DNA of 64,000 nt from Candidatus Latescibacterota bacterium (GTDB lineage: Bacteria > Latescibacterota > UBA2968 > UBA8231), in NCBI GenBank assembly GCA_965206595.1, contig OZ242214.1, forward strand, positions 3,264,001 through 3,328,000. The letters run 5' to 3'. A model generated the notes under the pieces. It was not told where the DNA came from and did not search any database. It worked only from the letters and a program-made list of their open reading frames with translations. Each line of letters starts with the position of its first letter. The first letter of the stretch is position 1. The translations under genes were made by a program, and so were the position numbers. Below are positions 7,601-27,913 of this stretch, one piece after another.

Positions 7601-9057
7601 CGCCGCCGGATTTCGAGTCTCCGGGGGACGCGAACGGCGACAAGATCTACGAGATGACGGTGTCGCTCAGCGACGGCCGCCCGGACGCGGCGGCCGACAC
7701 CACGGTGTCGGTGCGGGTGCGTGTGACCGACGTCAACGAGGCGCCGGTGGTGTCGGGAGTCAGCGACACCACGTTTGCCGAGAAGGGCTCGGGGGTGGTG
7801 GTCACGTATGCGGCCACCGATCCGGAAGGCACTCCCATCACGTGGACGCTGGGCGGCGCCGATGCGGACACGATGCGGCTGGATGCGTCGGGTCGGCTGC
7901 GTTTCCGGGCGCCGCCGCCGGATTTCGAGGATCCGGGGGACGCGAACGTCGACACCGTCTATGAGGTGACGGTGACGGCCGGCGACGGGTCGCTGTCGTC
8001 GCCCCCGTTTCCGGTCAGGGTGCGTCTGACCAACATCGACGAGCCGGGCAGGGTGATCCTGCCTGCGAGTCCTCAGGAGGGTCTGGCGTTTACGGCGGCC
8101 CTGACCGACCCGGACGGGGACGTGAGTGCGGAGCACGAGGAGGGGAATCCCGACGACGGGAACCGCGACGGGTGGGTGTTCGAGCGTCGGCGGCCGGCCG
8201 CGGGCGAGTCGTGGCAGCTCATCGCGGCCCCGGGTGGGGCTTCGGGGGCGGTGTCGACCTTGCCGGAGCTGAAGAGCTACACGCCGACGGCGGCCGATGT
8301 CGGTCACCTGCTGCGGGCGCGGGTGAGCTACCGGGACGGTCACGGTCCGAACAAGAACGCGCAGAGCGAGCCCACCGGGCCGGTGACGGCCCGGCCGCCG
8401 CCGCCGCCCGAGGCGCCGGTGGTGTCGGGAGTCAGCGACACCACGTTTGCCGAGAAGGGCGCCGGCGTGGTGGCGACCTATACGGCCACCGCCCCGGAAG
8501 GCACTCCCATCACGTGGTTGCTGGGCGGCGCCGATGCGGACACGATGCGGCTGGATGCGTCGGGTCGGCTGCGTTTCCGGGCGCCGCCGGATTACGAGTC
8601 ACCGGGGGACGCGAACGTCGACACCGTCTATGAGGTGACGGTGACGGCCGGCGACGGGTCGCTGTCGTCGCCCCCGTTTCCGGTCAGGGTGCGTCTGACC
8701 AACGTCGACGAGCCGGGCAGGGTGATCCTGCCTGCGAGTCCTCAGGAGGGTCTGGCGTTTACGGCGACCCTGACCGACCCGGACGGGGATGTGAGTGCGC
8801 GGCACGAGGAGGGGAACCCCGACGACGGGGACGGCGACGGGTGGGTGTTCGAGCGTCGGCGGCCGGCCGCGGGCGAGTCGTGGCAGCTCATCGCGGCCCC
8901 GGGTGGGGCTTCGGGGGCGGTGTCCCTTTTGCCGGAACTGAAGAGCTACACGCCCACGGCGGCGGATGTCGGTCGGTCCGAACCCCGCACTTCCCGATAT
9001 ACTCGGAGGTGCGACATCTGCTGCGCGTGTGGCCTGGGTGCCAGCGAAAGCACGTGA
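4654..9057 (+). pseudogene. C-terminal part of the interrupted gene: multiple FN3 and cadherin-like domains, apparently 3'-truncated
   Basis: FN3 repeats (GWQYRQ..VPNSTASTTSYTVTGLTNGVSYRFRVRA) and cadherin-like repeats (PPDFESPGDANGDKIYEMTV, TDVNEAP). It is in frame with 1624 once the IS and one TSD copy are removed. Confidence 0.85.
7738..8974 (+). repeat. Near-identical intragenic tandem duplication (~565 bp, period ~670 bp)
   Basis: 7738-8305 matches 8410-8974 almost base for base (both start GAGGCGCCGGTGGTGTCGGGAGTCAGCGACACCACG). A partial third copy lies at ~7460-7640. Confidence 0.9.
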
Positions 9058-9117
9058 CCGGTGGAGCTCCAAGCCGTGCTGAATCAATGAAAGAACCGGA
9101 TAGAGGGGGGAAATGGC

Positions 9118-9377
9118 ATGGCAAATCCTGAACGAGTCGAGCAACGCCCGACGGGGCCGCTTCCAAGGATTTCTCGCTGAGCACGGTACTCGGGGGGATC
9201 GTCACCGCCGTCTCCCTGGCCGAGGTCAACGAGTACGTTCCCACGGTAACCCTGCGCACCCTGGCACGAGACCTGGAGTACCTGGCCCTCGCCATCGGCG
9301 GCCTCGCTTTGGCGGTGATTCCGATCTGTTTGCTGATCTGTGTGGTGCGGCTCTGGCGTGCTGAAAGGAAAAGATGA
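9118..9377 (+). CDS. Small membrane protein (frameshifted near 5' end)
   Basis: The frame ending at TGA 9375-9377 encodes two hydrophobic segments (LSTVLGGIVTAVSL; LALAIGGLALAVIPICLLICVV). The ATG with RBS at 9118 is in another frame. Confidence 0.4.
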
Positions 9378-9480
9378 ACGACGAGGCTACGCGCTCGCTT
9401 TCTTCGCCCTGTCGAGGGTTATTGGAGGAACGAGCGCGAAGAGGTGCGCTTTCCATGCCGTCCCCCAGGAGGATAATGCC

Positions 9481-10623
9481 ATGAGACGACTGTTTTTGGT
9501 TGTGCTCGCATTGCCGTGGCTGCTTTCGTGCTCGGACGAAAGCAAGGTGGTCAACAACCCTGACAATCAGGGCGCCAAGCGCGACAGCAGCAGCCTGACC
9601 TGGAGCGATCCGGTGGCAGCGATCGACAACCACGCCGAACGCCGGGAACGAGCTGCCCCATTGGCGGCGCTGTACAAGGCGACCGAGGGGAAGAATTGGA
9701 AGAAAAAAACCAACTGGCTGAACTACGACGTGCCGCTGGGTGAATGGTACGGCGTCGAGACGGACCGCGACGGCCGCGTCATCGGGCTGGATCTCAGCTA
9801 CAACAATTTGGAGGGTTCCCTCCCGCCCGAACTGGGCCAGCTGACCAATCTGCGATCGCTGGATCTCAGCAGCGGTAGGCATTTGTTCGGTTCCATCCCG
9901 CCCGAACTGGGCCAGTTGACCAACCTGGAAAGGCTGGATCTCCACAACAATGGGTTGGGTTGGGCGGGGACTCTGAGGGCGGCCGCCATCCCGCGCGAAC
10001 TGGGCCAACTGGCCAACTTGAAAGTGCTGGATCTCAGTTGGAACGAGTTGGGCCATTCCCTCCCGCCCGAACTGGGACAAATGACCAACCTGGAAGGGCT
10101 GGTTCTCCGCGCCAACGAATTGAGCGGTTCCATCCCGGCCGAACTGGGTCAGCTGACCCACCTGAAAGGGCTGTTTCTTTACGCCAACGACTTGGGTGGC
10201 TCAATCCCGCCCGAACTGGGCCAGCTGACCAATCTGCGATCCCTGTACCTCGACGCCAACGACTTGAGCGGTCCCATCCCGCCCGAACTGGGCCAGCTGA
10301 CCAATCTGCGATCCCTGTACCTCGACGGGAACGGCTTGAGCGGTTCGATCCCGCCCGAACTGGGCCGGTTGACCAACCTGCTAGGGCTGTATCTCAACGA
10401 CAACCAGTTGAGCGGTCCCATCCCGTCCGAACTAAACCAGTTGACCAACCTGATCGAGCTGAACCTCCGCCGCAACAACGAGTTGAGCGGTTGTGTCCCC
10501 GCCTCGCTGAGTGGGATCGAATACAAAGGGGATTTGCCGTTTTGTAGTGACGAAACTACGGCAGGAACCGCGACCGAGGCCCGTTCCGAATCAGGGAAAA
10601 ACGGGACAATCGCGATATTCTGA
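9481..10623 (+). CDS. Leucine-rich-repeat lipoprotein (plant-type 24-aa LRR)
   Basis: GGAGG RBS, then MRRLFLVVLALPWLLSC lipobox; an LRR N-cap (LAALYKATEG..W..WYGV); about 9-10 LxGxIPPELGQLTNLxxLxLxxN repeats with 72-bp DNA periodicity. Confidence 0.9.
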   Translation: MRRLFLVVLALPWLLSCSDESKVVNNPDNQGAKRDSSSLTWSDPVAAIDNHAERRERAAPLAALYKATEGKNWKKKTNWLNYDVPLGEWYGVETDRDGRVIGLDLSYNNLEGSLPPELGQLTNLRSLDLSSGRHLFGSIPPELGQLTNLERLDLHNNGLGWAGTLRAAAIPRELGQLANLKVLDLSWNELGHSLPPELGQMTNLEGLVLRANELSGSIPAELGQLTHLKGLFLYANDLGGSIPPELGQLTNLRSLYLDANDLSGPIPPELGQLTNLRSLYLDGNGLSGSIPPELGRLTNLLGLYLNDNQLSGPIPSELNQLTNLIELNLRRNNELSGCVPASLSGIEYKGDLPFCSDETTAGTATEARSESGKNGTIAIF

Positions 10624-10643
10624 CACGAAACGAAAGGGATACC

Positions 10644-11495
10644 ATGCGACGATTACGACGACTTTTTCTGGCCAGCCTGACGCTGCTGCTGTGGATGCCG
10701 CTTGAGGCGGTCGCCCAAAACGATACGGGAACCCTGGAGGTGCTGGTGGAGGGGGAGGTTTCAGGGGCTTCAGGGGCCAGTAGCACCACCCCGTCTTCCA
10801 CCTTCGAGACGCGCACGGTTTCGAATCTCGTAAGGGTCGACATAGGACTTGGGCAATCGGTCACGGACTCCGGTCAACGGATTGGAACCGGTTCCGGGAC
10901 CGTCATCACGCCGACCGTCACGGAATCGGATCTGGTCACCGAACCCAGTGTGTATCCCCAAAATTTCCGCCACGTCACCAAGGACGCCCAAGGACGGATT
11001 TGGGCGACGGCCAAGGAGCCACATGGGCTCTATGTATTCTCCGACAGCACGTGGATACGCGTCCTTCCTCCGTATCTGGGTGCCCGGGACCTCGGCCGGG
11101 ACGCGCAGGGCAGAATCTGGGTGATAGCAAGTTCCGACATCGTGTACCGCATATCGGGTGATACGCTGACAGAGTACAGCGGCTTACAAAATCTCGGAGT
11201 CGGGTCTCTGAACTGTTTTGCCGGGGGGGCAGGAGACACCGTGTGGATGGGGGGGTACAGTGTAGTCGGAGGGGAGTTGAATCCGGCCCTGTTCTTGCGT
11301 TTCGACGGGCGAGAGTGGCGGCGGTTCTCAGGTACCGACGGGTTGCCCGACTACGCAACGATCGATGCGATGGCGGTAGACAGCACCGGCGCGGTGTGGG
11401 GCAAACCCGTCTATGATGAACCTGACTACCTCGGTGAGAGGAGTAGGTTTTTCAGGGCCGTGCAAATTAGGGATCGGAAGGTATCCTCTTCCTGA
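10644..11495 (+). CDS. Secreted protein with ligand-binding beta-propeller (Reg_prop-like) repeats, probably truncated
   Basis: Signal peptide and repeats KDAQGRIWA, RDAQGRIWV, FSGTDGLP..IDAMAVDSTGAVW. It ends abruptly in unrelated-looking sequence. Confidence 0.65.
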   Translation: MRRLRRLFLASLTLLLWMPLEAVAQNDTGTLEVLVEGEVSGASGASSTTPSSTFETRTVSNLVRVDIGLGQSVTDSGQRIGTGSGTVITPTVTESDLVTEPSVYPQNFRHVTKDAQGRIWATAKEPHGLYVFSDSTWIRVLPPYLGARDLGRDAQGRIWVIASSDIVYRISGDTLTEYSGLQNLGVGSLNCFAGGAGDTVWMGGYSVVGGELNPALFLRFDGREWRRFSGTDGLPDYATIDAMAVDSTGAVWGKPVYDEPDYLGERSRFFRAVQIRDRKVSSS

Positions 11496-11633
11496 GTGTC
11501 ATGTACCCGATCCCGTAGAGGAGTCCATCTTTTTGGCCAGGGGGATCTCGCCATCGTGTCGATCCCGGGCTCCCGCGGCCCCTTGGGACAGGTCCTCGCC
11601 TGTGGAAATAAACCGACTTCAAGGAGTGGGATC

Positions 11634-14511
11634 ATGAAACGAACCGTTCTCCCCTTGCTCGTTTTGGGTTTTCTGGCCGGTGGCCTTCCTGCGCAGGCTT
11701 CCCCTCCGCCTGCCGACAACCCGCATTTCTGCTGGCCGCTCGATATCCAGTCGGGGCCGTTCGAGGTGCCCGCCCCCGCCGCCAAGCCGCAGGCGGACCT
11801 CAACGTCGGCGAACCCCGCACCGTGCGGATGATCTACTTCCTACCCAACGACGGTGTATTCCGTCAGGAGCAGGTCGATGCGCTAAAGGCCACCATTGGA
11901 AAAGTTCAGAGCTTTTTCGTCGACCAGATGGAGGCGCACGGCCACGGCAAGCGCACCTTGCGCATTGAAACCGACGCCGAGGGTGAGCCGCTGGTGCATC
12001 GGGTGGTTGGGCAACACCCCGACAGCCACTATCTGGAAGACACCCAGGTTGCGTACCGCGAGATCGAGCAGTTCTTCGACCTCAACGAGAATGTCTACCT
12101 GATTTTGGCTGATCTCAGCACCTCAAACATCGGCCTGGGCAATGGTCGGACTGCGGCAGGAATCGGCTGGGGGTACAAGAAGGGGGGTCAGGCGCTGGTC
12201 TCGCCGCCGGTGTATTTCCAACTCATTGCCCACGAACTCGGCCATGCCTTCGGCTTGCACCACGACTTCCGCGATAGGGCCTACATCATGTCCTATGGCC
12301 CCGGGCGGGGCCAGTTGTCCGCCTGCGCGGCCGAATTCCTGGCCGTGCATCCCTATTTCAATCCGGACAGTCTCCTCGAAATCGATTGGGAGGGGGCGCC
12401 GACCGTCGAGCTGGTTTCGCCGCGCACCTTTGGGGGGGACGCAACAAGTGTCCCCGTCCGCGTCAACGTTTCGGATTCGGATGGGGTTCGCCACGTGACG
12501 ATGGTCCAGACCAGTGTGTGGCTGCCGGCGAGGGAAATTTTGGGGTGTCGTGGGTTGGACGGCCAGAGCCATGCCGCCGTTGAATTCGAGTATGACGGCT
12601 CGCAACCCTCCAGGCCTTCCTTACGTCTCTTCGATAGGGCTATCCACCAGATTTTGGTCCGGGCCGTCGATGCGGGGGGAAACTGGGGCTGGAAGACTTT
12701 CCAGCTTTTGGATACCTCCCACTTGATTGCCGCTCTTGCAGATCAGGCGTTTAAGGTCGAGACGGTGTCGTTTTCTCCCGATGGGGCCACTTTGGCGTCG
12801 GGAGGCGATTTGGACGAACGGGTCAGGGTGTGGGATGTAGAGACCGGAAGCGTGACCGCCACTCTCGACGTGGGGAATGAGGGGGTTGGGGTCAAGGCCG
12901 TGTCGTTTTCTCCTGACGGCTCCCTGCTGGCTTCCGGGTCGTACTTCACCCTCGACTTGTGGGACGTAGAGACGGGGAGACGGATCTTCGTCCTGGACGA
13001 TGGGAAAACTCTAACCATTTCCGTGTCGTTTTCTCCCAATGGTTCCCTGCTGGCTTCCGGGACGCGATTTGGCACGGTCAAGCTGTGGGACGTGGAAACC
13101 CGAGAACGAGTCGGGACGCTGGAAGGGCATAGTGAAGTCACGGCGCTGTCGTTTTCTCCCGATGGTTCCCTCCTGGCCTCGGCCGGGGGGTGGGACGACG
13201 GCACGGTCAAGCTGTGGGACGTGGAAACCCGAGAAGTACGGCGGCCCTCTCCCCGGTGCGACCGTCACCTTTGCGGTCACCGCCGGCGAGGGGAGCCTCA
13301 CGGCCACCACGGCCACCACCGATGAAAACGGCCGCGCCACTACCCTCTTGACCCTGGGAAAGGACCCGGTAAGGAATACCGTTACGGCAAGAGTCGCCCA
13401 GGTGAAACCGGTGATCTTCGGGGCCACCGGGAGGGCGATTCCCAAGGCCTTGACCAAGCTCTCCGGCGATGAACAGGAAGGCCCGGCCGGAACGGCGTTG
13501 CCCGAGCCATTCGTCGTCGAGGTTCGGGACCAGAACAACCACCCCCTCGAAGGGGTCCCCGTCGCGTTTTCGGTCACTTCGGGTGAAGGCACCCTCTCGG
13601 CGGCAAACGACACCACCGATGCGGCCGGCCGCGCCGAGGCCACCCTGTCGCTGGGAAGCCAGCCAGGAACCATCACCGTCCTGGCAAAGGCCGACGAGTT
13701 ATTTCAGGCCACCTTTATCGCCTTCGGGGTTGCCGTCCCCCAAAGCCTGGCCAAGCTCTCCGGCGACGGGCAGCAGGGAGACCCCGGCGCTTCGCTGGCC
13801 GAGCCGTTTGTGGTTTCGGTCCTGGATCAGACCGGGGCGGCGTTTTCCGGGGCCACCGTTGCCTTCGCGGTCACCGCCGGCGACGGGACCCTCTCGGCAA
13901 CCACGGCCACCACCGATGCCAACGGCCGCGCCTCCACCACTTTGACTCTGGGCCTGTCCGGGGCCAGCACCGTCACCGTATCCGTTGCCGGCCTCGAGCC
14001 TGCCATCTTCACCGCCAGCGCCAAGGCAACCCCCGACTTCGACGGCGACGGTGAGACCGGCTTCTCCGACTTCTTCCTGTTCGCAGACGCCTTCGGCGGC
14101 AGCGACCCCCGCTTCGACCTCGACGGCAGCGGCAGTGTCGACTTCGGCGACTTCTTCCTTCTGGCCGACCACTTCGGGGATCCCGCCCGCGGCAAGCTAC
14201 TCGCCCTGGCCCGGGAAATGATCGGACTTCCCGACGGCCCCCAACTGCAGCAGAACGTCCCCAACCCCTTCAACAGCCAGACCGTCATCTCCTGGTTCCT
14301 GCTGCGGCCGGGTCCGGCGCGAGTAGAAGTGTTTTCCCTGATGGGTCAGCGGGTGGCCGTGCTGCACCAGGGGGCAAAGAAGGCCGGGGGCCACCGCGTG
14401 CACTGGGACGGGCGCGACGACGGGGGCCGTCCCCTGGCCAGCGGCGTATACTTCTACCGACTGGTCACTGACGAGAGCGTTCCGACGCGCAAGCTAACTC
14501 TTCTGCGGTGA
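11634..14511 (+). pseudogene. Secreted zinc metallopeptidase-WD40-Big_1(invasin)-EF-hand/dockerin-like-FlgD/T9SS-tail protein, frame break at ~13235
   Basis: Signal peptide and AHELGHAFGLHH; WD40 repeats (VSFSPDGSLLASG..VKLWDVET). After the frame change come Big_1 repeats (TFAVTAGEG..TTDENGRA), DFDGDGETGFSDFFLF twice, and QNVPNPFN..WDGRDDGGRPLASGVYFYRL. Confidence 0.85.
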
Positions 14512-17101: not shown

Positions 17102-17320
17102 CTATGGCTGCCGCTCAACTCGACAAAGATCCGCCGCATAGCGGACCGCGGCTTGGACGGATTCGCGGGTGATCGACGGGTAGCTGCTTGTGATTTTCTC
17201 CGGGTTCAAATCTGCCGCGAGGTTGTCGAGAACCGTGGACACCAGCACGCGGGTGCCCGTGATGCAGGCCTTTCCATGGCAGACTTCCGGGTCGACGGTT
17301 ATGTAGTCCCGCCAGTTCAT
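17102..17320 (-). CDS. DUF433-family antitoxin-like protein
   Basis: [39 protein letters not shown]; its ATG overlaps the hsdR stop (ATGA). Confidence 0.88.
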
Positions 17321-20300
17321 GGCTCCCCGAGCACTTCCAGGAACTCGGCAATCACTTGAAGGTCTCCTTCATCCGTACCGGTCAGGACGATAGGCTCAAA
17401 GTCCGGGTTTACGGGCTTCAAAGTGATTTTCGAATGACGCCACGAATCCCCTTCCACTACCCTTTCACTTTCGTAACGCTTGACGGTGTAACGCTGGCTG
17501 GTCTCAGGATCGATTTGGTCTCGGAGCTCGACGAGGACGGTCTTGCCCTGCCGGCTTCCTTCAACCGGGGCGCGGAAGAGACACCAGGAACCGTCCGGGA
17601 TCGCAGGCTCCATGGACCTGCCGACGACCTGGGCGGCGAACATCCCTCGTCTCAACTGGTGCCGTGATTCCACGGCCACCCACTCGAAACCATCCTCCTC
17701 GATGTGCCGGGGCTCACCAAATGCCCCCGCTGCGGCCTTGAGCGGAACGAGCGGCACACAGCTCACGTAACGCTCCTCTGAACGGCCTTCCACCACGCGC
17801 AGTCCCGCCGGGAAGGCCTGCTCCGTGGGCAGTTCGTCCGATGCGGCCTGATCGGTCCGCAGCCTTCGATAAGCTTCGGAAGCCATCCAACTGGTGACGA
17901 TCCGCTGGAAGGAGGAGTCGTTCATGTAGCGGACGAAGATCTCCTCGTTCTGGTCCATGCGTTCGACGAAGATCCGCTCCAGAAGATTCCTGAACACCAG
18001 CTCGAATTTGTCCTCCGGGTTCACCGCGGCTGCCTGACGCAGTCCGTCGTCGCTCATCGCCGCCTCGACGATCTGGTCGAAGAAGAGCTGGTCCGCCTGG
18101 TTGAAGTCGGTACCGAAGCGCTCGTTGACAACGTCAATAAGCTGAGAAAGCGGCAACGCCTCCTCGTGTGCAGCGCCGCTGCCGACCTCGGTTGGCCCAT
18201 CCAGAGCGTGCGTGTCCCCCCCGGCGAGGGAGATCGAACCCTCACTGATCTTCTGCAGGCGGTAGTACTCGAGCCGGACCTCGTCATCGAACTGATAGGC
18301 GGGACCGCTCCGGCGCCGTGGCAGCTTGGCCGCCAGATGGCGCAGGAACACGTACAGGCGCTCGAGGTCCGAATCCTGGTACGGGATGATCTGACTCAGG
18401 AAGCCGTACAGGTTGCGGAACGCCTGAGCCTTTCCGCGCCAGAGCTCCGCTTGGTTCTCGTCCTCTCTCTGTAGATCCTCGAAACGGGAAACCGCCGGAT
18501 CGAGAGCTGCGTTCATCGTCTGGTGGTCCTGAGTGCTTTGCCGTTGCTTCGGCTTGAAGTACACGGCACAGAACCGCTCGACCTCTTCATCGAGATAGAT
18601 CCCTGAAGCGTCGAGCTCACCCTTGACCGCGTACATGCGGGCGGGATCCACTTCTTCCCCCATCTCCGTCCCTTCGTAGTAGACCTTGAACGCTTCGCGG
18701 ATCTCTTCGGGGTCGTTTACGAAGTCGAGGACGAAGGTGTCTTCCTTGAGGGGGTGGGTGCGGTTGAGTCGCGACAGCGTCTGCACCGCCTGGATGCCGG
18801 CAAGCCGCTTGTCCACGTACATCGTGTGCAGAAGCGGCTGATCGAACCCGGTCTGGTATTTCTCCGCGACGAGCAGCACCTGGTACTCCTGCGTCGCGAA
18901 CTTTTCCGGAAGCTCTTTCTGCCGAATCCCGGCGTTCATCTTTTCTTCGGTGTACTCAACGTCCGGAAGCTTGTCGTCCTGAACCGTTCCCGAGAAGGCG
19001 ACCAGGGTTTTGATGGCGTATCCCTTCTCCTGGATGTAGCGATCAAAGCTCTGCTTGTAGCGCACGGCCTCCAGACGGGAACCGGTGACGACCATGGCTT
19101 TCGCGCGTCCGCCGATCTTGTGCCGGGTGAATGCCTGGAAGTGCTCGACCATCACCTCGGTTTTCTGCGCGATGTTGTGGGGATGCAGGCGCAGAAAGCG
19201 CGCCAGCGCGCGGGCTGCGTTCTTCCGCTCGACGTTGGGATCGTCTTCGCAGGCCTTTAACAGTTTGAAGTAGGTCGCGTACGTGGTGTAGTGCTTGAGC
19301 ACGTCGAGGATGAACTCTTCCTCTATCGCCTGCCGCATGGTGTAGCGGTGGATCGGTTCCCCGCCCCGGCCGAACACCGCCAGCGTCTTGTGTTTGGGCG
19401 TGGCGGTGAAAGCGAAGAAACTCAGGTTCGCCTGCCGTCCGCGTTTGGCCATGCTGCGGAACAGCGCCTCCTGGTCCTTGAGGCCTTCTTCCTGTGCGCG
19501 TTTACGAGCCTCTTCTTGCAGGTCTTCACCGCCGAGGACTTCCTTGAGATCCGTCGCCGTCTCCCCTCCCTGCGAGCTGTGGGCTTCGTCCACTATGACG
19601 GCGCAGCGTTTAGTGGGAAGTACACCTGTACTCTCAACGCCCTGCTCCTTGGCCATCTTGAGTAAATGCCGGGAAACAAATGGGAACTTCTGCAGCGTAG
19701 TGATGATAATCGGGACGGCGTTTTCCAAGGCTTCAGCGAGCTGTCGGGATCGCTCGTCGATCTTCTGCACGACCCCGAGCTTGTGCTCGAACTGGTAGAT
19801 CGTGTCCTGCAGTTGCTGGTCCAGCACAACCCGGTCAGTCACCACGATCACGCTGTCGAAGACGCGCTCGTTCGCCTCGTCGTGCAGGGAAGCGAGTCGG
19901 TGCGCCAGCCAGCCGATCGTGTTGCTCTTGCCGCTGCCGGCCGAATGCTCGACGAGGTAGTTGTTGCCGACCCCCTCGCGACGAGCCTTCTCCACCAGCA
20001 GACGGACGGCGTCGAGCTGGTGGTAGCGCGGGAAGATCATCGACTCGACCTTCACCTTGCGGCCATGATCATCCCGTTTCTCCTCGATTTGCAGATGGAC
20101 GAACCGGGCGAGCACATCGAGCAGGCTGTCCCGGGTGAGTACTTCCTCCCAGAGGTAGGCGGTCCGGTAGCTGCGGCCGTTCGGATCGGGCGGGTTTCCG
20201 GCCCCTCCGTCACTTCCCTTGTCCAAGGGCAGGAAGTGGGTCGCGTCGCCAGCAAGCCGCGTGGTCATGCGCACGCACTCGGTGTCGACGGCGAAGTGAA

Positions 20301-20859
20301 CGAGCGTACGTCGTTTGAACTCGAAGATCGGCTCGCGGGGATCGCGGTCGCGCCGGTACTGGTGGATCGCATCCTCCACCGTCTGCCCGGTGAGCGGGTT
20401 CTTCAGCTCAACCGTGGCGACGGGGATACCGTTCAGGCTCACTGTCAGGTCAAGCGACTTCTCCGAACGGGATGAGAAACGAAGCTGTCGCGTAAGCCCG
20501 AGCTGGTTGGCAACGTAGCGGGCTTCGAGCTCGGGGTTCAATTCATGGGCGGCTTTGAAGAACGCCACGTGAAGCGTCCGGCCGTAGCACTTGAAGCCGT
20601 GCCGAAGAGTTGCCAGCGAGCCGTTGGCGTCCATCCACTTGCACAGGTCCGTGAGAATCTGCTCGCCGGTTTGGACGCCGTGGAGCGCTTCCAGCTTTGC
20701 CCATTGCACGGGCTGGGTCTCGCGGATGAAAGCGAGGACGGTGTCGGGGAAAATTGCGTGGTCGCGGTCGAAGCCCTCTCCTGGGACGGGGACGTATCCG
20801 TTCCGAAGCAGGTGCGCTTCGATTACGGTCTCGAAGGCGGCTTCACTGGTTTGGCTCAT
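17317..20859 (-). CDS. hsdR: Type I restriction enzyme R subunit with C-terminal S24/LexA-like peptidase domain
   Basis: [17 protein letters not shown] nuclease motif; [29 protein letters not shown] and QTLSRLNR helicase motifs; C-terminal [27 protein letters not shown]. Confidence 0.95.
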
Positions 20860-20905: not shown

Positions 20906-21672
20906 TCACTTCAATTTCTCGCGATGTGTCTCGACCAGAAACTCCGCTACAGCACCCGCGGCATTCACCGCAAGGCTTGCATGTCGTGGTGATGGCCGAA
21001 TGGACAAACGTCCTCCCCTGCCGTGAGAATCGGAGAGTCGATTGCGCAATGTTCCGATACCGTTCACGAGGTTCATCACGCCACCGAGGATCGCCTTGAT
21101 CGGCTCCTCCGAATGCTGGCTTGGCGCGAGGTTCAACGCCTTTGCGGCCTTCGTATACAGCTTCGGCAAGTCGTCCCTGTCGGTATATTCCAGCGAGAGA
21201 TCGTCGAGAATGTGCTTGGTCACGGCTTCCAACAGTGTCCGGGCAAGAGTGATCGCACCTTCGGGGTCGCTCGTCCTGCGCGACAATGCCTTCGACCACA
21301 CCGCGTGAACGTGCTCGTGATCAAACAACTGAAGTGCATCGGACGTGGCCGAATCGGCAGGCGAGAGGTTTTGACCTTCCAGACGGTCAACAAGAGGAGT
21401 GAAAGCCGCACTAATGATCTGTCGGCGCTCCGCGTACGTTGCAGCCTCGTTCTTAATAAATTGCCAGAAAGCATCCAGACTTCGATAGGTACGAACAAAG
21501 CCGGGAAGCAAGCTCTTGATTTCGTTATCGTTCATGAACTCCCGGCGCAAGTGCACGTAAATGTCGTCAACAAGAGAACCACCTGTCGCCGCATCAACCA
21601 GAATACCTTCCATCATCCCATCATCTTGACTCGTTCAATGGTCGAGTCTGGCAGCTCGTTCTCGTTCACCAT
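20906..21672 (-). CDS. Abortive infection (Abi-C-like, HEPN-type) protein
   Basis: DPEGAITLARTLLE..KHIL and LRNRLSDSHG motifs. The true start is probably 21672 (MVNENELPD), displaced by an 8-bp duplication at 21610-21625; the in-frame ORF runs from 21616. Confidence 0.8.
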
Positions 21673-21675
21673 TGT

Positions 21676-22162
21676 TCAACTCGCACCTTTCTGGTTTACA
21701 TAGATAAATTTGAACCATATATCGTCCAAGTGACCGAAGTCTGCATCTGTTGATAGGAGAACAGCCCCGCTTGCGTGAGCCGTCGCGGCTATCCAGAGAT
21801 CATTTTGTTTCATCGACACAGCCGGCGTTGGCGGCGGAGCATTTTGAGGAGAAAGCCACAGGCTTACCGTGGGTCCAGGCGTCAATCCGAGCGTACGCGT
21901 CCAATATCGTTCGTCTGCTGATGTCAAGCGTCGGCACCCCGTTGAGAACTTGCTCAAGGTGGGTTCTTCTGGTGCTGCCCCAACCATTCTTCTCCGCAAG
22001 CGCGAGAATTTCTCCTTGGCAGATAACGGAGGTAAAGACCATTGTTTCCGGATTTCCGAGATTGAATTCTGCGCGAGCCTGGATAGCCCACGGTGCTTCC
22101 CGGGTGAAACCGAGCAACAGGTTCGTGTCCAGGAGGAAACGTGTCATAGCCAGATCGTTCAA
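21676..22162 (-). CDS. PIN-domain (VapC-like) toxin, single-base frameshift near 21853
   Basis: LLDTN and SVICQGEI lie in ORF 21800-22162; NDLWIAATA and STDADFGHL lie in ORF 21676-21999. All four PIN acidic residues are present across the join. Confidence 0.85.
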
Positions 22163-23112
22163 TCGAGCTGAGCCAGGAGGTCCTCGATCGGTTCATCGCC
22201 AGGCCACGCGCCCGCAAGCTCAATAGGGTCGAAGGCCCCGGCTTGCTTGCGTTGTACCGGGAATAGGTCATGCGATTTCTGAATCTCTACCGATGGCATT
22301 TCCTCGAAAACACTATCTCCTTCCAGCTGACTACTGATTCGGCGAGCCTCGATGAATCGCGGCTCGCCGTTGGCCTTGAAATGCACCATCCCCTCGACAG
22401 TAGCCTGCCTACCCCATAGAGAGCGCAAAGCCTCTACGCTCAATGATGCAGCGTCCAGCCGTCCAAAGAGTGTTGACTTCCGGCTCACTAAAAGGCGAAA
22501 GCGGCCGTTGCCGTGTTTGATCTCGTCGAGCCTGCCACTTACGACGAAAGACCTTGGGGCCGGGATGTCATTCAACCGCTCTTTGATGTATTCGCAAGTA
22601 CTGTCGTCCAGCACGAATCGTCCATGGGCCGTACTCTGAGGGATCATTTCATAGCGCACACCGGCAACTCCAGCCGCTTTCCCGAACTTGAGAATCGCCT
22701 CGAGAACCGAACTATCGAAATAGTCTCCAACTGGATCGTCGGTCTGGGTCTCGTTGACCGCTTGGGCGGCTAGATCAAGTGCCGTGTCGTTCAGGCTGGG
22801 CTGCATGCTCCATGAGTCTGCTTGGGTAAACTGTTCGCAGGCAGTCTCACTAAGCTGGGGAGCTTCCACGTCAAAAATCGTGGATCCGGATTTCAATCCG
22901 GTTACCGTGAAGTCTATGGTGGAGTCCAGCCAGTGAGGTCTCGCCCCCTTCCCGCTACCCGCGCCAGTAGCGAGCAAGCGGGTGGTCCGCTCTGCCGTCG
23001 TGAGGAGGGCGTCCAGAACACGCCGGAGAGTCGCCATCTTGATCTGACCTCCGTTTTCTCTCAGACCGCTGACGCAGAGTTGGTAGCGTTGTGTTTTCAT
23101 GGCAGGGCTCAC
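22159..23112 (-). CDS. Hypothetical protein (shared GST/OB-like module + antitoxin-like tail), partner of PIN toxin
   Basis: 317 aa with 4-nt overlaps to hsdS and the PIN gene. It aligns by eye with 24804-25931 and ends LAGAWPGDEPIEDLLAQLD. Confidence 0.75.
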   Translation of the reverse strand: MSPAMKTQRYQLCVSGLRENGGQIKMATLRRVLDALLTTAERTTRLLATGAGSGKGARPHWLDSTIDFTVTGLKSGSTIFDVEAPQLSETACEQFTQADSWSMQPSLNDTALDLAAQAVNETQTDDPVGDYFDSSVLEAILKFGKAAGVAGVRYEMIPQSTAHGRFVLDDSTCEYIKERLNDIPAPRSFVVSGRLDEIKHGNGRFRLLVSRKSTLFGRLDAASLSVEALRSLWGRQATVEGMVHFKANGEPRFIEARRISSQLEGDSVFEEMPSVEIQKSHDLFPVQRKQAGAFDPIELAGAWPGDEPIEDLLAQLD

Positions 23113-24314
23113 TTTCCTGAGTTGCTGAGCGATGGCGCATGTTGCACAGCTTCGCCGTTTCTCATCTCGATCTTGCCAGTAACAGCAGCCGCGATGAGGG
23201 CGGCGCGGCGCTCCTTGAGGAGAGCAACCGTGCTTTCCGTCGATTCCCTCAGTTCCTCGAGTCTCTTCGCCTCGAATGCAATTTGCTCGACAATCTCCGC
23301 CTGCTCTTGGACGGGAGGCAATGGAACTTCAATGTCGCGGAAGCCTGTCCAATAGAGACGCAACCTATCCCACACGATTCCGTGGGAGTGGCGCGCACAC
23401 TCCGCACTGAAAGCAGCAGTTTGAAAGAGTCTTTTTGCGTACGCTGAAGACAAAAGCCCGACGGGTTCCGCAACCACATAGTCCGGACTCACTAGGCCGT
23501 CCTCAGGGGCTATGCCAACTGCCCCTTGCCACATCCGCATCTTGTTGAACACCACATCACCTTGGCGAGCAACTTTATACGTGTTGAAATCGGCTGCTGT
23601 GCTCTCGATTCGTTCCTCGGAAAATTCACGCAAGATGACACCATGGTTGATCGAAACTTCCAACAGCGGAAGATCCGGCTCCCCTCGTTCGTCACGCTCG
23701 CTGAATAGCCAGGCTACCCGCCGCGTCTTCCAATGTGCAGGAATCACACCAAGCCAGGGGATGCCGGAATCGCGGAGCGGCAGGGCAGGGTCGAGGCCAC
23801 AGGTAACGGCACGGGTTATGAGAGCACGGCGCTTCTCGGCCAGCAGGTCCAGCAACTGCTCCTTCTCTGCTACCAGTTCATCCAGCCGCGCCGTCTCGCG
23901 GTCGAGGTAGCTGGCAATGGTGCGTTGCTGGGACAGAGGTGGGACAAACACCTCTCTGGCGTAGGCGGTTTCACGATTGAGGCCCGGAACTGCTGCTTCG
24001 TCCGTTCCTTCATCAAGTCGCAAAGTTTGAAGGAGCCAGTAGAGCCAGCGCAAATGGTTCCTGCTAACCGATTCGTCAATGAAGAAGGTCGTATCAGAAG
24101 CGAAGCACGGTTCCGCAGTCCAGTTGACCTTGCCATAAGAGCCTTTTCGCCCAATGATGATCGCTGGCGCTCCGGTGTTAGTCCTTGAGAAAGAAGCAAA
24201 TGGTCCGTTGGAGCCAAACACACGAAAGGTGCCATCAAGTGGCTCGTCACTCGGCAGAGCGTCGCCGTAGCCTAAACGAGCGACAAATTTCAGCTTTGCC
24301 CTCGGCCACATCAC
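23109..24314 (-). CDS. hsdS: Type I restriction-modification specificity subunit
   Basis: Two TRDs and the conserved helices VPPLSQQRTIASYLD..KRRALITRAVT.GL..DSGIPWLG.IP.HW and LPPVQEQ..LLKERRAALIAAAVTGKI. Confidence 0.95.
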   Translation of the reverse strand: MMWPRAKLKFVARLGYGDALPSDEPLDGTFRVFGSNGPFASFSRTNTGAPAIIIGRKGSYGKVNWTAEPCFASDTTFFIDESVSRNHLRWLYWLLQTLRLDEGTDEAAVPGLNRETAYAREVFVPPLSQQRTIASYLDRETARLDELVAEKEQLLDLLAEKRRALITRAVTCGLDPALPLRDSGIPWLGVIPAHWKTRRVAWLFSERDERGEPDLPLLEVSINHGVILREFSEERIESTAADFNTYKVARQGDVVFNKMRMWQGAVGIAPEDGLVSPDYVVAEPVGLLSSAYAKRLFQTAAFSAECARHSHGIVWDRLRLYWTGFRDIEVPLPPVQEQAEIVEQIAFEAKRLEELRESTESTVALLKERRAALIAAAVTGKIEMRNGEAVQHAPSLSNSGK

Positions 24315-24430: not shown

Positions 24431-24807
24431 CAGCCAGGGTCAACGCGATACTGCCAGCCGCGAAGCACCGCGGCACGCGTCAAGTATTTCGCCTTCGTCT
24501 TGATGTCCGCGTTGGAGCAATCGCGGAAGTCGATCACTACGTGTTCTGGAAACGGCTCCGGATCAGGCGTTACAGGCAGCTCCTGTTTTCCGCATTCTGC
24601 TACGGTCAAGGCCATGACGCCAACCGATGTCAGGCCCAATTTATGGGTGTAGTGGCAATACGCCTGCTGAGCCGTCATCTGGTCTCCGTCGTAAACGGAG
24701 AGTTTCCCTTGGTCCTTTGCCGTCGGTTTGAACGCCTGGGAGGTGACTCTTCCTTCTCGAATCCAACCTGGGTTCACCTGTCGTAGCAGCAAGGTGTCCA
24801 GTGTCAT
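24430..24807 (-). CDS. Small putative toxin, ADP-ribosyltransferase/RES-like motif pattern
   Basis: 125 aa, with an ATG overlapping the upstream stop. LLRQV..TSQAF..LSVYD..GV..PEHVVI matches the R..S..H pattern of ART-like folds (inference). Confidence 0.55.
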   Translation of the reverse strand: MTLDTLLLRQVNPGWIREGRVTSQAFKPTAKDQGKLSVYDGDQMTAQQAYCHYTHKLGLTSVGVMALTVAECGKQELPVTPDPEPFPEHVVIDFRDCSNADIKTKAKYLTRAAVLRGWQYRVDPG

Positions 24808-25931
24808 ACACGGCCCGAAGTCATGGCCTCGATCTGGTCGACCAGCCACTTCCAGTCATCGCCAGCGTCACAATTCAACGTGCGCTCGGAAGCGACGTTG
24901 GACACCATGTTGAGCGCGTGCCATTCGCCGGAACGGGTTTCGAGATTCACATCGAACGTGACCTCGTTCGGGCCGAGGGACCATTCAGCTTGAACGCCTC
25001 CCGATTCCGTTGGGTAGAGGTGTGGCAACGGCGCCTCATCGGAAAAGTGCCGGTCGAAGGCGTCGTTCAGCCAATCGAGGCCCGCGCTTGGTGGGGCAAG
25101 TCCCTCTCCTTCGAGCCAGCCGTTCTGCAATAGGCGCAGGTCGTCGAGTTGCGCGCCGACATCCAAAGCGTCGAGAATGCTCAGATGTTCAATTGTATCG
25201 AAATCGATAAACTGATCACCGCGACTGAAACGTCCGATGCCCTGGAACAACGCGCGAATTCCGTTCTGGTATCCCTTGAACGCTTCGAGGATAGTGTCGA
25301 GGTGCTGCGAGGCAATCGGAGCTTTGACCTTGCTGCCGTCTATCAACTGAATCTGGAAGCTCATGTCGTCCTGGTCAGCCTCGGGCACTGTACCTCGAAT
25401 CGAAACTTCCTCGGTCAGTTCCTTCACTTTGGGCGACGCAAGGACCAAGCGTCGTCGGATGTCCCTGGTGAGCTTGGCCGTGATTTTGTTGTCAGGATCA
25501 TCGAATAAAACCGCTTCACCCTCCTTCAGGCTTCGCCCTAGCTTGTCGAAGTAGCCCAGCGTCCCCTCCGGCAGATGCGGCTCGATGGGACGTTCGTGTT
25601 CCGCTGCACTGATAGCTTGGATGATCGCGTCGCGCGCGTAACCGGAATAGGTCTGGCTGACTGTCGGAAGCAAGGTCGGCGGTTCCGAGGCCATTCGGAT
25701 GTCCAGGGATGTACTGCCAGGACTGATCGCGGCGAGCCCCAATTGGATGTTCTTCGTGAAGCCACGGGGTGACCGCTGACGATTCGGGTGATCCGTGAGG
25801 AATTTGGCCTTGGCGACTTCAACGACCATTTCTTCCAGCACCGCGACATCTTTCAAGAATTCCAGCGGGACGGAGTGGTCATCGTAGCGCGCTCCGACGA
25901 GACGCAAGCGCATGAAGGGTTCCGTGCTCAT
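24804..25931 (-). CDS. Hypothetical protein (shared GST/OB-like module + distinct C-terminal domain), partner of ART-like gene
   Basis: 375 aa with ATGA overlaps to hsdM and the downstream gene. C-terminal domain: LDDLRLLQNGWLEGEG..PHLYPTESGGVQAEW. Confidence 0.75.
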   Translation of the reverse strand: MSTEPFMRLRLVGARYDDHSVPLEFLKDVAVLEEMVVEVAKAKFLTDHPNRQRSPRGFTKNIQLGLAAISPGSTSLDIRMASEPPTLLPTVSQTYSGYARDAIIQAISAAEHERPIEPHLPEGTLGYFDKLGRSLKEGEAVLFDDPDNKITAKLTRDIRRRLVLASPKVKELTEEVSIRGTVPEADQDDMSFQIQLIDGSKVKAPIASQHLDTILEAFKGYQNGIRALFQGIGRFSRGDQFIDFDTIEHLSILDALDVGAQLDDLRLLQNGWLEGEGLAPPSAGLDWLNDAFDRHFSDEAPLPHLYPTESGGVQAEWSLGPNEVTFDVNLETRSGEWHALNMVSNVASERTLNCDAGDDWKWLVDQIEAMTSGRV

Positions 25932-27913
25932 GAAGTCACCTCCCGCAACAGGCGCATGATCTTCTCCTCTGCCTCCTTCAAATCCGCGTCGATCTCCTCC
26001 AGCGGTCGTGGCGGTGTGTACTTGTAGAAGTGGCGATTGAAGTTGATCTCGTAGCCGACCTTGTCCTTGCCGCGGTCCATCCAGGCGTCGGGAACGTGGG
26101 GGGCTACCTCCCGTTTGAAGTAGGCGTCGACGTTGTCTTTAAGCGGCACGTTCTCGAAGTCGCGCAGCTTGGTGTCGGGCTCGCAGCCTTTCTCCCGGCC
26201 ATCCTTCCTTACCCGCTCGGCCTGCGGGTCCTTCTCGGTGAAGACATCCCGGAAGAGATTCTGTTCCGCCTTCTTCCAGCGCGATTGACGCTTATGCAAA
26301 AGAGCCACAATTCTCCCCCATGCCGCATTCCAGTCGTGCTCCGGCTCTCGCCCCAACTCTTTGTCGATGGCCTGCACATCGTCGAGCAGATACGGGCAGG
26401 CATCGAGGAAGCGGGCCTTGTCTTCTATGGTCATCTGGTAGCGCAAGCGCAGGGGGCGCTCCACGGTCACGCGTGTGTACCCGAAGTCGGCGTTGTCGAA
26501 GACTCTGGAGCGTTCGCCGTCCTCGAAGCGGCCGTACAGCCGCACGATCTCCTCGATCTGCCCTGAGGTAAGGTGGCGGCGCTTGTCGCCAAGGCTGCGC
26601 TTGTTGTCTTCGCTTCCCCCCGCGGTCCACAGGTCGCGGGCGTCGAGGAGCTGTATCCGCCCCTGCCGGCGCTCCTCCTTGCGGTTGGTGACGATCCAGA
26701 CGTAGGTGCCGATTCCGGTGTTGTAGAACATCTGCTCGGGCAGGGCGATGATGGCTTCGAGCCAGTCGTTCTCGATGATCCACTTGCGAATGTCGCTCTC
26801 CCCGGACCCGGAGCCTCCGGTGAAAAGCGGCGAGCCGCTGAACACGATGGCGAGCCGCGAGCCGTGTTTGTGTTTCCGCGGCCGCACCGGTTCCCGCTTG
26901 TGCCACATGTGCTGCAGGAAGAGCAGCGAGCCGTCGTTCACGCGCGGAAGCCCTGCCCCGAAACGGCCCTCGAATCCGAGCTTGTCGTGCTCGCGCTGGA
27001 CCTCATTCTTCTGCCTCTTCCAGTCCACGCCGAAGGGAGGATTGGTGAGGAAGTAGTCGAAGGTCTCGCCCTCGAACCGGTCCTCGGTCAAGCTGTCGCC
27101 GAAGCGGACGTTGTCTCCGCCGCCGTTGTGGTCGACCTGCTTCATCAGCATGTCGGAGGCCGCGGTGGCGAAAGCGCGGTTGTTGTAGTCCTGCCCGTAG
27201 ACGTAGAGCCGTGCCGCATCGTGGTGGTCTCGCAGGTAGTTCTGCGCTTCGGCCAGCATGCCGCCCGTTCCGCAGGCGGGGTCGAGGAGCTTGCGCACGG
27301 TTCCGGGTGTGGCGAGCAGTTGGTCGTCCTGAATTAAGAGGATGCTCACCATCAGCCGGATGACCTCTCGCGGCGTGAAGTGGTCGCCCGCGGTCTCGTT
27401 CGCCAGTTCGTTGAAGCGGCGGATGAGATTTTCGAAGAGGAGTCCCATCTGCTCGTTCGGGAACCTGTCGGGGTGCAGGTCCACGTCGCAGAACTTCGAG
27501 ACGACGAGGTACAGGATATTGCTCTCCTGCATCTTCTCGATCTCGCTCTCGAACTCGAAGAACTCGAAGATGTCGCGCACGTTGGCCGAAAAGCCCTGGA
27601 TATAGCTGACGAGGTGCGGGGCAATGTTGTCCGGATCTCCCTTGAGCTTGTCGAAATCGAGGTCTGAGTGGTTGTGGAAGCGCTGGCCCGCGGCCCTGTT
27701 CAGCCTGGCGTCGAGCGCTTCGCCGTCGAGTCTGCCGCGCCAGCGATCATATTCGGACAGGACCTTTGGCTTGCTCGGCGCGAGCACGCAGTCGAACCGC
27801 CGCAGCACGGTCATGGGCAGCATGACGCGCTCGTACTGCGGCGGGCGGTAGGGACCGCGCAGCAGGTCGGCGATCTGCCAGATCAGGCTGGCGAAGTAGC
27901 TGTGGTCAGGCAT
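25928..27913 (-). CDS. hsdM: Type I restriction-modification N6-adenine methyltransferase
   Basis: IWQIADLLRG, FTPREVI, DPACGTGGML (motif I), NPPFG (motif IV), FYNTGI and VGYEINF motifs. Confidence 0.96.
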   Translation of the reverse strand: MPDHSYFASLIWQIADLLRGPYRPPQYERVMLPMTVLRRFDCVLAPSKPKVLSEYDRWRGRLDGEALDARLNRAAGQRFHNHSDLDFDKLKGDPDNIAPHLVSYIQGFSANVRDIFEFFEFESEIEKMQESNILYLVVSKFCDVDLHPDRFPNEQMGLLFENLIRRFNELANETAGDHFTPREVIRLMVSILLIQDDQLLATPGTVRKLLDPACGTGGMLAEAQNYLRDHHDAARLYVYGQDYNNRAFATAASDMLMKQVDHNGGGDNVRFGDSLTEDRFEGETFDYFLTNPPFGVDWKRQKNEVQREHDKLGFEGRFGAGLPRVNDGSLLFLQHMWHKREPVRPRKHKHGSRLAIVFSGSPLFTGGSGSGESDIRKWIIENDWLEAIIALPEQMFYNTGIGTYVWIVTNRKEERRQGRIQLLDARDLWTAGGSEDNKRSLGDKRRHLTSGQIEEIVRLYGRFEDGERSRVFDNADFGYTRVTVERPLRLRYQMTIEDKARFLDACPYLLDDVQAIDKELGREPEHDWNAAWGRIVALLHKRQSRWKKAEQNLFRDVFTEKDPQAERVRKDGREKGCEPDTKLRDFENVPLKDNVDAYFKREVAPHVPDAWMDRGKDKVGYEINFNRHFYKYTPPRPLEEIDADLKEAEEKIMRLLREVTS

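Follow-up and report, generated by a model that had tools for sequence, protein, structure and literature searches.

Nuclease-based defenses endanger their own host when repair or recombination yields unmethylated or damaged DNA. One protein-level safeguard against this danger is well understood, and only one: the alleviation of EcoKI-type restriction enzymes, in which ClpXP degrades the HsdR subunit once DNA has been damaged and restriction ceases (PMC12707154; PMC4231737); type I families other than the EcoKI type are described as having other or unknown means of alleviation (PMC12707154). In the case of LexA-type domains, RecA filaments on single-stranded DNA (RecA-ssDNA, or RecA*) are reported to stabilize the cleavable conformation, leading to self-cleavage at an Ala-Gly bond (10.1101/2023.10.30.564768), and cleaved LexA, as PMC10584840 relates (citing Neher et al. 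2003), exposes latent ClpX signals. In this study, we describe a protein that brings elements of these two systems together. A 64,000-nucleotide stretch of a Candidatus Latescibacterota genome (contig OZ242214.1, positions 3,264,001 to 3,328,000; hereafter the window, meaning the whole stretch that was analyzed) encodes a type I restriction subunit, HsdR, that carries at its C-terminus a LexA-like peptidase S24 module with intact catalytic and cleavage-site residues.

A peptidase S24 module at the C-terminus of HsdR

The hsdR gene is located at 17317..20859 on the minus strand (stop codon included) and its 3543 nt translate into a single frame of 1180 amino acids with zero internal stops (protein P0001). 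Pfam recognizes an HSDR_N domain at residues 117-204, SWI2_SNF2 at 280-521 (SWI2_SNF2/ResIII at 277-521), T1R_D3-like at 648-705, and Peptidase_S24 at 1067-1171. The translation shows D(x13)ELK for the nuclease, GSGKS for Walker A, and DEAH, and PADLOC classes the protein as REase_I. The NCBIfam model TIGR00348 (hsdR) matches residues 117-729 with 203.5 bits and does not reach its cut-off of 284.55. Judged by its domain content and operon context, the body of the protein is a type I HsdR, of a divergent subfamily with a complete set of domains.

The conserved block of the tail starts at about residue 1030, and the S24 (LexA/UmuD-like) module, a predicted self-cleavage unit, occupies residues ~1030-1178 (17326..17772, minus strand), as delimited by Pfam PF00717 and by two alignments, one of 68 module sequences (A1) and one of the module with Escherichia coli LexA (A2). 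The PF00717 match scores 32.6 bits, the Pfam cut-off being 23.3. Three elements follow one another in the order Ala-Gly, Ser, Lys, which is that of LexA, all encoded on the minus strand: the predicted scissile bond Ala1044-Gly1045 in the motif KAAA-G (17725..17730, codons checked in the raw bases); the predicted nucleophile Ser1082 in GRSMEP (17614..17616), which aligns with LexA Ser119; and the predicted general base Lys1127 in TVKRY (within RYTVKRYES; 17479..17481), which aligns with LexA Lys156. The spacing from Gly to Ser is 37 residues, compared with 34 in LexA, and that from Ser to Lys is 45, compared with 37, with an 8-residue insert. A BLASTP comparison of the tail with the LexA of this genome gives 30% identity over 106 amino acids (E 2e-7), with GRSMEP facing GESMRD and TVKRY facing TVKRF, and A2 shows that the LexA residues Pro77, Ala84, Phe111, Gly117, Ser119, Met120, Gly128, Gly142, Lys156, Leu167, and Asn171 are kept.

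At the level of sequence, the tail has all the features by which S24 peptidases are recognized, that is, a G-x-S-M serine with a downstream lysine in the alignment and an Ala-Gly bond ~35 residues N-terminal to the serine in the same chain (37 here). It is not a LexA itself, since the DNA-binding domain is missing: Pfam and NCBIfam scans found no helix-turn-helix (HTH) family in HsdR. The first-pass annotation of this region had proposed a fusion of HsdR to an S24 domain with KAAAG, GRSMEP, and TVKRY in LexA order, and translation, codons, Pfam, and the LexA BLASTP comparison bear this out. It had also proposed that cleavage would leave a body ending in -AAA and release a fragment of ~14 kDa. 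The first of these stands, as the predicted cut would leave an HsdR of 1044 amino acids ending ...LKAAA, and the second is corrected upward, the fragment from Gly1045 to Pro1180 having 136 amino acids, or about 15 kDa.

The fusion is real. Three Logan contigs, from three runs belonging to different studies, bridge the HsdR/S24 junction, with no indels listed: X1 (752 nt, 17332-18083, 0 differences), which may derive from the window's own source sample, X5 (603 nt, 10 substitutions), and X6 (467 nt). A stop codon between HsdR and the S24 domain, the refuting result named in the first-pass annotation, is not seen; the frame is open. Two observations rule out an assembly artefact or a frameshift as the origin of the fusion: contigs bridge the junction, and the frame recurs in dozens of assemblies that are independent of one another. 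Of the 120 best near-length relatives, 119 contain both G.SM.P and [TVIL][VIL]KR within their last 200 residues. Within the window's phylum, 14 of 168 genomes encode a full-length HsdR with the tail, at 80-100% identity, and one more has a split gene and another a partial one. A split HsdR-S24 gene of one relative genome (G139:C1:6281333-6286262) consists of two open reading frames (ORFs) that cover query residues 2-479 and 473-1178, and it is probably a frameshifted copy.

The nearest relatives lacking S24, which are 72% (genome G126) and 69% (G018) identical, match just residues 1-1001 and 1-1003, respectively; the alignment with the G126 protein (L089, 1008 amino acids) covers P0001 residues 804-1000, after which that protein ends. 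As these relatives stop at ~1001-1003, residues ~1001-1029 (17773..17859, minus strand) can be assigned to a linker between the helical C-domain of HsdR and the module at ~1030-1178. The S24 tail is thus an add-on, placed after a linker of ~28 residues at the normal C-terminus of HsdR. Within this tight HsdR family, the tail does not surpass the other regions in conservation: across 69 full-length relatives, the median identities of the nuclease, motor, helical, and S24 regions are 83, 88, 80, and 76%.

The predicted catalytic and cleavage-site residues, on the other hand, are strongly held within the module. Ser1082 is invariant in A1, in which conservation reaches 90% or more at each of Ala1043, Ala1044, Gly1045, and Lys1127. 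Residues were also counted, over non-gap cells, in proteins aligned to a hidden Markov model of the module, in three sets: 150 diverse representatives, the HsdR_A/ISP near-length set, and a second HsdR family (HsdR_B). In that order, the serine is present in 143/145, 120/120, and 120/120 sequences and the lysine in 138/142, 120/120, and 120/120. At the cleavage site, the P1 alanine is found in 125/128, 120/120, and 115/120 sequences, the P1' glycine in 120/128, 117/120, and 120/120, and the P2 alanine in 125/128, 120/120, and 107/120. Position P3 is Ala in 100/127 and Val in 17/127 of the diverse representatives, and Ala in 113/120 and 117/120 of the other two sets. Across host architectures and hundreds of relatives, Ser, Lys, and Ala-Gly are under strong purifying selection. 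The conserved Ser, Ala-Ala-Gly, and Lys amount to more than a chance motif match, and a domain with a purely structural role would hardly be expected to keep them in every host context.

Insertion points and spread of the module

S24 matches in this genome are three only: one canonical LexA of 209 amino acids, the HsdR of the window, and a second HsdR. The latter (P0121, 910 amino acids; G000:C1:117133-119862, or L004:7131-9863 on the minus strand) lies outside the window, belongs to a ResIII + EcoEI_R_C family, and adjoins its own hsdM. Its S24 module, 43% identical to that of the window, is situated near the N-terminus. Comparison with an S24-less relative (L088), 82% identical to P0121 over residues 218-910, locates the insertion: P0121 residues 3-45 correspond to L088 31-73, and 218-300 to 103-185. 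In P0121, 172 residues with the module stand in for a 29-residue loop that leads from the first nuclease helix to the PD-(D/E)xK core. Pfam agrees weakly, with HSDR_N profile positions 3-37 falling on residues 11-44 (E 0.17) and 113-196 on 203-283. This architecture is itself conserved, the best 120 matches being 72-98% identical, most of them ~906 amino acids long and almost all with PF00717.

A third insertion point is found in a metagenome-assembled genome (MAG) of Candidatus Schekmanbacteria, in which a HindI-type HsdR (HSDR_N, SWI2_SNF2, T1RH-like_C; L083:5092-8703, plus strand) has the module placed after the helicase Q-motif (GYHQFHAV) and ahead of the SWI2_SNF2 core. The predicted cut in HsdR_B severs the first ~72 residues, the S24 core staying on the enzyme, and that in L083 separates the Q-motif from Walker A. 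In these two placements, cleavage would be expected to break an essential domain rather than to shed a tail. Common to all three is that the backbone would be cut and that the piece N-terminal to the predicted cut, which contains nuclease sequence, would acquire an -AA end resembling that of cleaved LexA.

The module is also widespread outside HsdR. A query with residues 1000-1180, restricted to proteins of similar length, yielded 2037 matches; the best 120 of these have tail identities of 67-100% and fall into two architectures, HsdR and N6_Mtase + Eco57I + Type_ISP_C. When 1.84 billion cluster representatives were searched exhaustively by phmmer with residues 1020-1180, 1946 matches were obtained at E<=1e-3, with 197 at E<=1e-30. 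Partner domains were scanned with Pfam in the 86 of the best 150 representatives that have at least 240 amino acids, and restriction or defense domains were found in 42 of the 86. The partners comprise Type_ISP_C (13 proteins), HsdR-type domains (HSDR_N, SWI2_SNF2, T1RH-like_C; 6), SLFN-g3 helicases (5), MZB/DUF1998 helicases of up to 1969 amino acids (4), HNH_4 (3), PLDc_2, SLFN_AlbA_2, and ResIII/Helicase_C (2 each), and McrBC, RE_LlaJI, RE_endonuc, MmeI, and N6_Mtase alone (1 each). HTH partners of the repressor type occur in only 4 of the 86, and 40, many of which are fragments, show S24 alone at E<=1e-5. The same S24 subtype, 45-80% identical, is carried by type ISP/IIG enzymes, three HsdR families, PLD/HNH/McrC nucleases, and Schlafen/YprA-type helicases.

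Close relatives of the module are encoded in at least 186 species-representative genomes, of which a Candidatus Latescibacterota MAG (98%) is the nearest. Among the best 80 of the 186 genome loci, nearly all of them metagenome-assembled, a dozen or more phylum-level labels are represented. When the ORFs of these 80 loci were compared by BLAST with a labeled panel, 40 fell into the HsdR family of the window and 26 were type ISP/IIG-like; there were also one MZB helicase, one HindI-type HsdR, one ResIII protein (Pfam-confirmed), and one weak PLD match, the remaining 10, short or truncated, being left unclassified. High mobility of the system is seen in its HsdR bodies, which share 78-87% identity across phyla. 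Of the 168 genomes of the window's own phylum, 21 contain the module, and in five of these it is fused to two or three different effectors.

The phage record collection contains no match to the module, and the plasmid record collection contains one, in Halomonas sp. PA16-9 (replicon NZ_CP040452.1), which is the only isolate-derived match. At this position (L090:3959-6429, plus strand), where the record is unannotated, a Schlafen-group-3 helicase ORF of 686 amino acids is followed by a 159-residue ORF with the S24 module, in another, overlapping frame; the arrangement represents a fusion with a frameshift or, alternatively, a split form.

A candidate off-switch and its alternatives

The most economical account of the module, which we tentatively adopt by analogy with LexA, is that of a self-cleaving off-switch, triggered by RecA* and serving restriction alleviation; we would give it a little less than an even chance. 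In the undamaged cell, the cleavage loop would lie outside the active site and HsdR would work normally within the R2M2S1 complex. Upon DNA damage, at stalled forks, or when repair recombination makes unmethylated sites, RecA-ssDNA filaments would accumulate and push the module into its cleavable conformation, and the protein would cut itself between Ala1044 and Gly1045. The ~15-kDa fragment would be freed and the 1044-residue HsdR left with the end ...LKAAA-COOH, which resembles the latent ClpX signal of cleaved LexA. Unfolded, degraded, or otherwise disabled, the cut HsdR would no longer restrict, and alleviation would be achieved at the protein level without transcription.

Several lines of evidence are consistent with such a switch, among them the S24 score of the tail, the LexA-like order and spacing of its three motifs, the purifying selection on those residues, and the nature of the module as a promiscuous add-on. 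Proteolysis of HsdR for damage-induced alleviation is an established need of type I systems, and we count it in favor of the off-switch. The direction, for which the first-pass annotation had offered both off and on, fits off better because in two other HsdR families the module lies inside the nuclease or motor domain, where a cut would break the enzyme. The proposal that -AAA may act as a ClpX-like degron gains some support, as the P2-P1 Ala-Ala pair is nearly invariant and the exposure of latent ClpX signals has been reported for LexA after cleavage (PMC10584840). With regard to the trigger, the pocket of LexA for RecA Phe203 is described as involving Val79, Val82, Phe111, Leu113, Val146, and Val153 (10.1101/2023.10.30.564768), and Phe111 is invariant in A2. 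On the whole, the earlier interpretation is partly supported.

Two full-length recA genes above the family cut-off are present in this genome (G000:C1:3623915-3624688 and 6155969-6156739), as are two clpX genes (G000:C1:1883640-1884836 and 5740761-5741939). Together with the single canonical LexA, they supply the partners that the proposal requires. Having recA in duplicate is out of the ordinary and could be relevant to a switch gated by RecA.

A number of points weigh against the RecA*-triggered off-switch. The RecA dependence of the module is an analogy, and IrvR, a LexA-like protein, has been reported to be RecA-independent (PMC7101444). According to the preprint of Cory et al., part of the contact of LexA with RecA* is made by its DNA-binding domain, of which HsdR has no counterpart. 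Positions of the RecA pocket differ, Leu113 being replaced by Ala and Val153 by Tyr or Phe, depending on the alignment. The conserved Phe1047 (P3') and Trp1060 could fill the pocket and so make cleavage independent of RecA, in the manner of the hyper-cleavable LexA variant Q92W, which is reported to fill the pocket itself and to bind RecA* less well (10.1101/2023.10.30.564768). The module is far, by its sequence, from solved S24 proteins, with no PDB match for the last 179 amino acids by phmmer (E<=1) or for the A1 profile (E<=0.01), and two private insertions flank its Lys strand, one of 8 residues before and one of ~9 after. As for the fate of the cut protein, -AAA differs from the -LAA of ssrA, its recognition by the ClpX of this phylum would be conjectural, and the C-terminal placement leaves a complete HsdR after the cut, which could be active if not degraded. 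Finally, one HsdR_B-S24 protein (P0298) is found on a 5.5-kb contig labeled as a Candidatus Thermoplasmatota archaeon, a label that may be a binning error. Archaea have RadA in place of RecA; should the label be correct, the module would occur in a lineage that is not known to possess RecA or LexA.

Some of these observations would suit a self-cleaving module that answers another trigger, or one that matures constitutively, S24 being then a removable pro-domain or a timer. Cleavage might be spontaneous once the protein has folded or assembled, or it might answer a cue such as pH, a protein of the phage, or whether HsdR is translocating or stalled; restriction might, for example, be held back in a new host until methylation has taken hold there. 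How type I systems are controlled while they settle in a new host is a recognized difficulty (PMC12707154), and the high mobility of the system, as seen in the identity of HsdR bodies across phyla, fits this idea. The conservation of the catalytic and cleavage-site residues is equally well accommodated, IrvR gives a precedent of a RecA-free LexA-like protein (PMC7101444), and Phe1047 and Trp1060 could self-populate the RecA Phe203 pocket as in Q92W. We nevertheless consider this explanation unlikely. Rare cases aside, the well-studied S24 self-cleavers answer RecA* (PMC7101444), the residue matching LexA Phe111 is invariant, and a constitutive cut inside a nuclease or motor domain is hard to square with a working enzyme.

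It is quite improbable, in our view, that the module works in the opposite sense, restraining the effector while uncleaved and unleashing the nuclease when RecA* forms on phage or damaged DNA. Arming upon alarm would be sensible for those effectors that have no methyltransferase in the same protein (PLD, HNH, McrC-like, and Schlafen-type helicases), and passengers of the abortive-infection type (Abi_C/AbiJ) are present in the operon. However, type I and ISP/IIG enzymes, which make up 66 of the best 80 genome loci, already tell DNA apart by its methylation and have no use for an alarm, and the predicted cuts in HsdR_B and L083 look destructive rather than releasing. A role independent of proteolysis, with S24 as a dimerization or scaffold domain that pairs two motor-nucleases for collision-dependent cutting, is very improbable: the S24 C-domains of LexA, CI, and UmuD' do dimerize, and type I and ISP enzymes do cut when two motors meet, but this would leave unexplained both the near-invariant Ser, Lys, and Ala-Ala-Gly in all host contexts, with natural substitutions of Ser or Lys in as few as 2/145 and 4/142 diverse representatives, and the insertion of the module in internal loops of different HsdR families.

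Were the RecA*-triggered off-switch to hold for the other hosts of the module as well, these proteins might constitute a protein-level "SOS regulon" for immunity, in which one portable fuse is mounted on at least a dozen kinds of DNA-targeting defense enzymes. RecA-ssDNA would then irreversibly disarm nucleases within minutes and without transcription, leaving an -AA tag of the ClpX type on each nuclease fragment. We regard this broader proposal as possible but on balance doubtful.

Operon setting and relation to known systems

The genes hsdM, hsdS, and hsdR lie on the minus strand and form a complete operon, with hsdR at its end. The hsdM product (25928..27913, 661 amino acids) matches Pfam HsdM_N + N6_Mtase and PADLOC MTase_I (848 bits), and that of hsdS (23109..24314, 401 amino acids) matches Pfam Methylase_S and PADLOC Specificity_I (252 bits); hsdS is upstream of hsdR in 21 of 32 loci of full-length relatives. 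Three passengers are interspersed on the same strand. Between hsdM and hsdS there is a gene for 375 amino acids (24804..25931), assigned to the PADLOC candidate family PDC-M32A with 443.6 bits, for which the Pfam scan matched no family. An unknown ORF of 317 amino acids (22159-23112) stands between hsdS and an Abi_C/AbiJ-like gene of 236 amino acids (20906..21616; Pfam Abi_C, 80.3 bits; PADLOC AbiJ), which is located just upstream of hsdR. The three passengers are mostly absent at related loci, and in a 98%-identical relative (L007) the Abi_C gene is reduced to a 20-residue remnant.

On the other side of hsdR, a DUF433 gene of 72 amino acids (17102..17320, minus strand; Pfam DUF433, 78.9 bits) overlaps the hsdR stop codon with its ATG (ATGA). 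Its relatives occur near hsdR in just 3 of 32 related full-length loci, where they are upstream of hsdR, and no adjoining partner toxin gene was identified at the locus. A 107-residue ORF at 21676-21999 (minus strand) has a weak, sub-threshold similarity to PIN/DUF5615 (20.1 bits against 23.6); it could be the remains of a toxin gene, or the similarity could be due to chance. The G+C content is 0.57-0.61 over 18-26 kb, compared with 0.65-0.70 in the flanks, a drop that fits a transferred island; no tRNA is found within the window. Adjoining the island is a run of large surface-type proteins (4654-14511, plus strand), namely fn3/cadherin-like (1467 amino acids), LRR (427), WD40 (609), and Big_1/invasin-like (490), the last two ORFs of which, 11496-13325 and 13039-14511, overlap in different frames.

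In full-text literature searches, whose coverage was incomplete and excluded supplements, no description was found of an S24/LexA-like domain on a restriction or defense enzyme, and neither S24 nor LexA occurs in the text of PMC12839542 and PMC12707154. The module is found almost only in uncultured environmental bacteria, which may explain the lack of a published description. The ARMADA/YprA-family defense helicases (Bell et al. 2025, PMC12458937) are related through the carriers of the same S24 tail, which include MZB (DUF1998) DEAD helicases of 1878-2006 amino acids; the words "S24", "LexA", and "peptidase" appear nowhere in the main text of that paper. IrvR of Streptococcus mutans shares with the module an S24-type domain and, as described in PMC7101444, processing outside the RecA paradigm, but it is a transcription factor and not an enzyme fusion.

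LexA, UmuD, and lambda CI (MEROPS S24, PF00717) have the same Ser-Lys dyad and upstream Ala-Gly in one chain, in the same order and with similar spacing. Unlike in those proteins, the cargo here is a helicase-nuclease of 1000 amino acids, there is no DNA-binding domain, and the module may sit C-terminally or inside host domains. The predicted end left on the cargo is mostly Ala-Ala-Ala, whereas the LexA 1-84 fragment ends Val-Ala-Ala. In both cases, self-cleavage gives, or would give, a two-alanine C-terminus to the fragment that is to be removed (Neher et al. 2003 via PMC10584840).

A compact, transplantable, damage-responsive self-cleaving tag could serve as a tool. With respect to immunity, a built-in LexA-like fuse, if true, would add to ClpXP-dependent alleviation a second safeguard, both direct and general, against the danger that nucleases pose to their host, tying the DNA-damage signal to defense post-translationally. 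The EcoKI system (types IA/IB) offers a functional parallel, as its alleviation by ClpXP is likewise described as a post-translational, proteolytic shut-off of HsdR that meets unmodified host sites after damage (PMC4231737; PMC12707154). The HsdR of EcoKI, however, has no protease domain, ClpXP recognizes the translocating complex, and RecA is involved only indirectly. In the system described here, where a part for ClpXP would be conjectural, both the sensor and the cutter would be built into HsdR.

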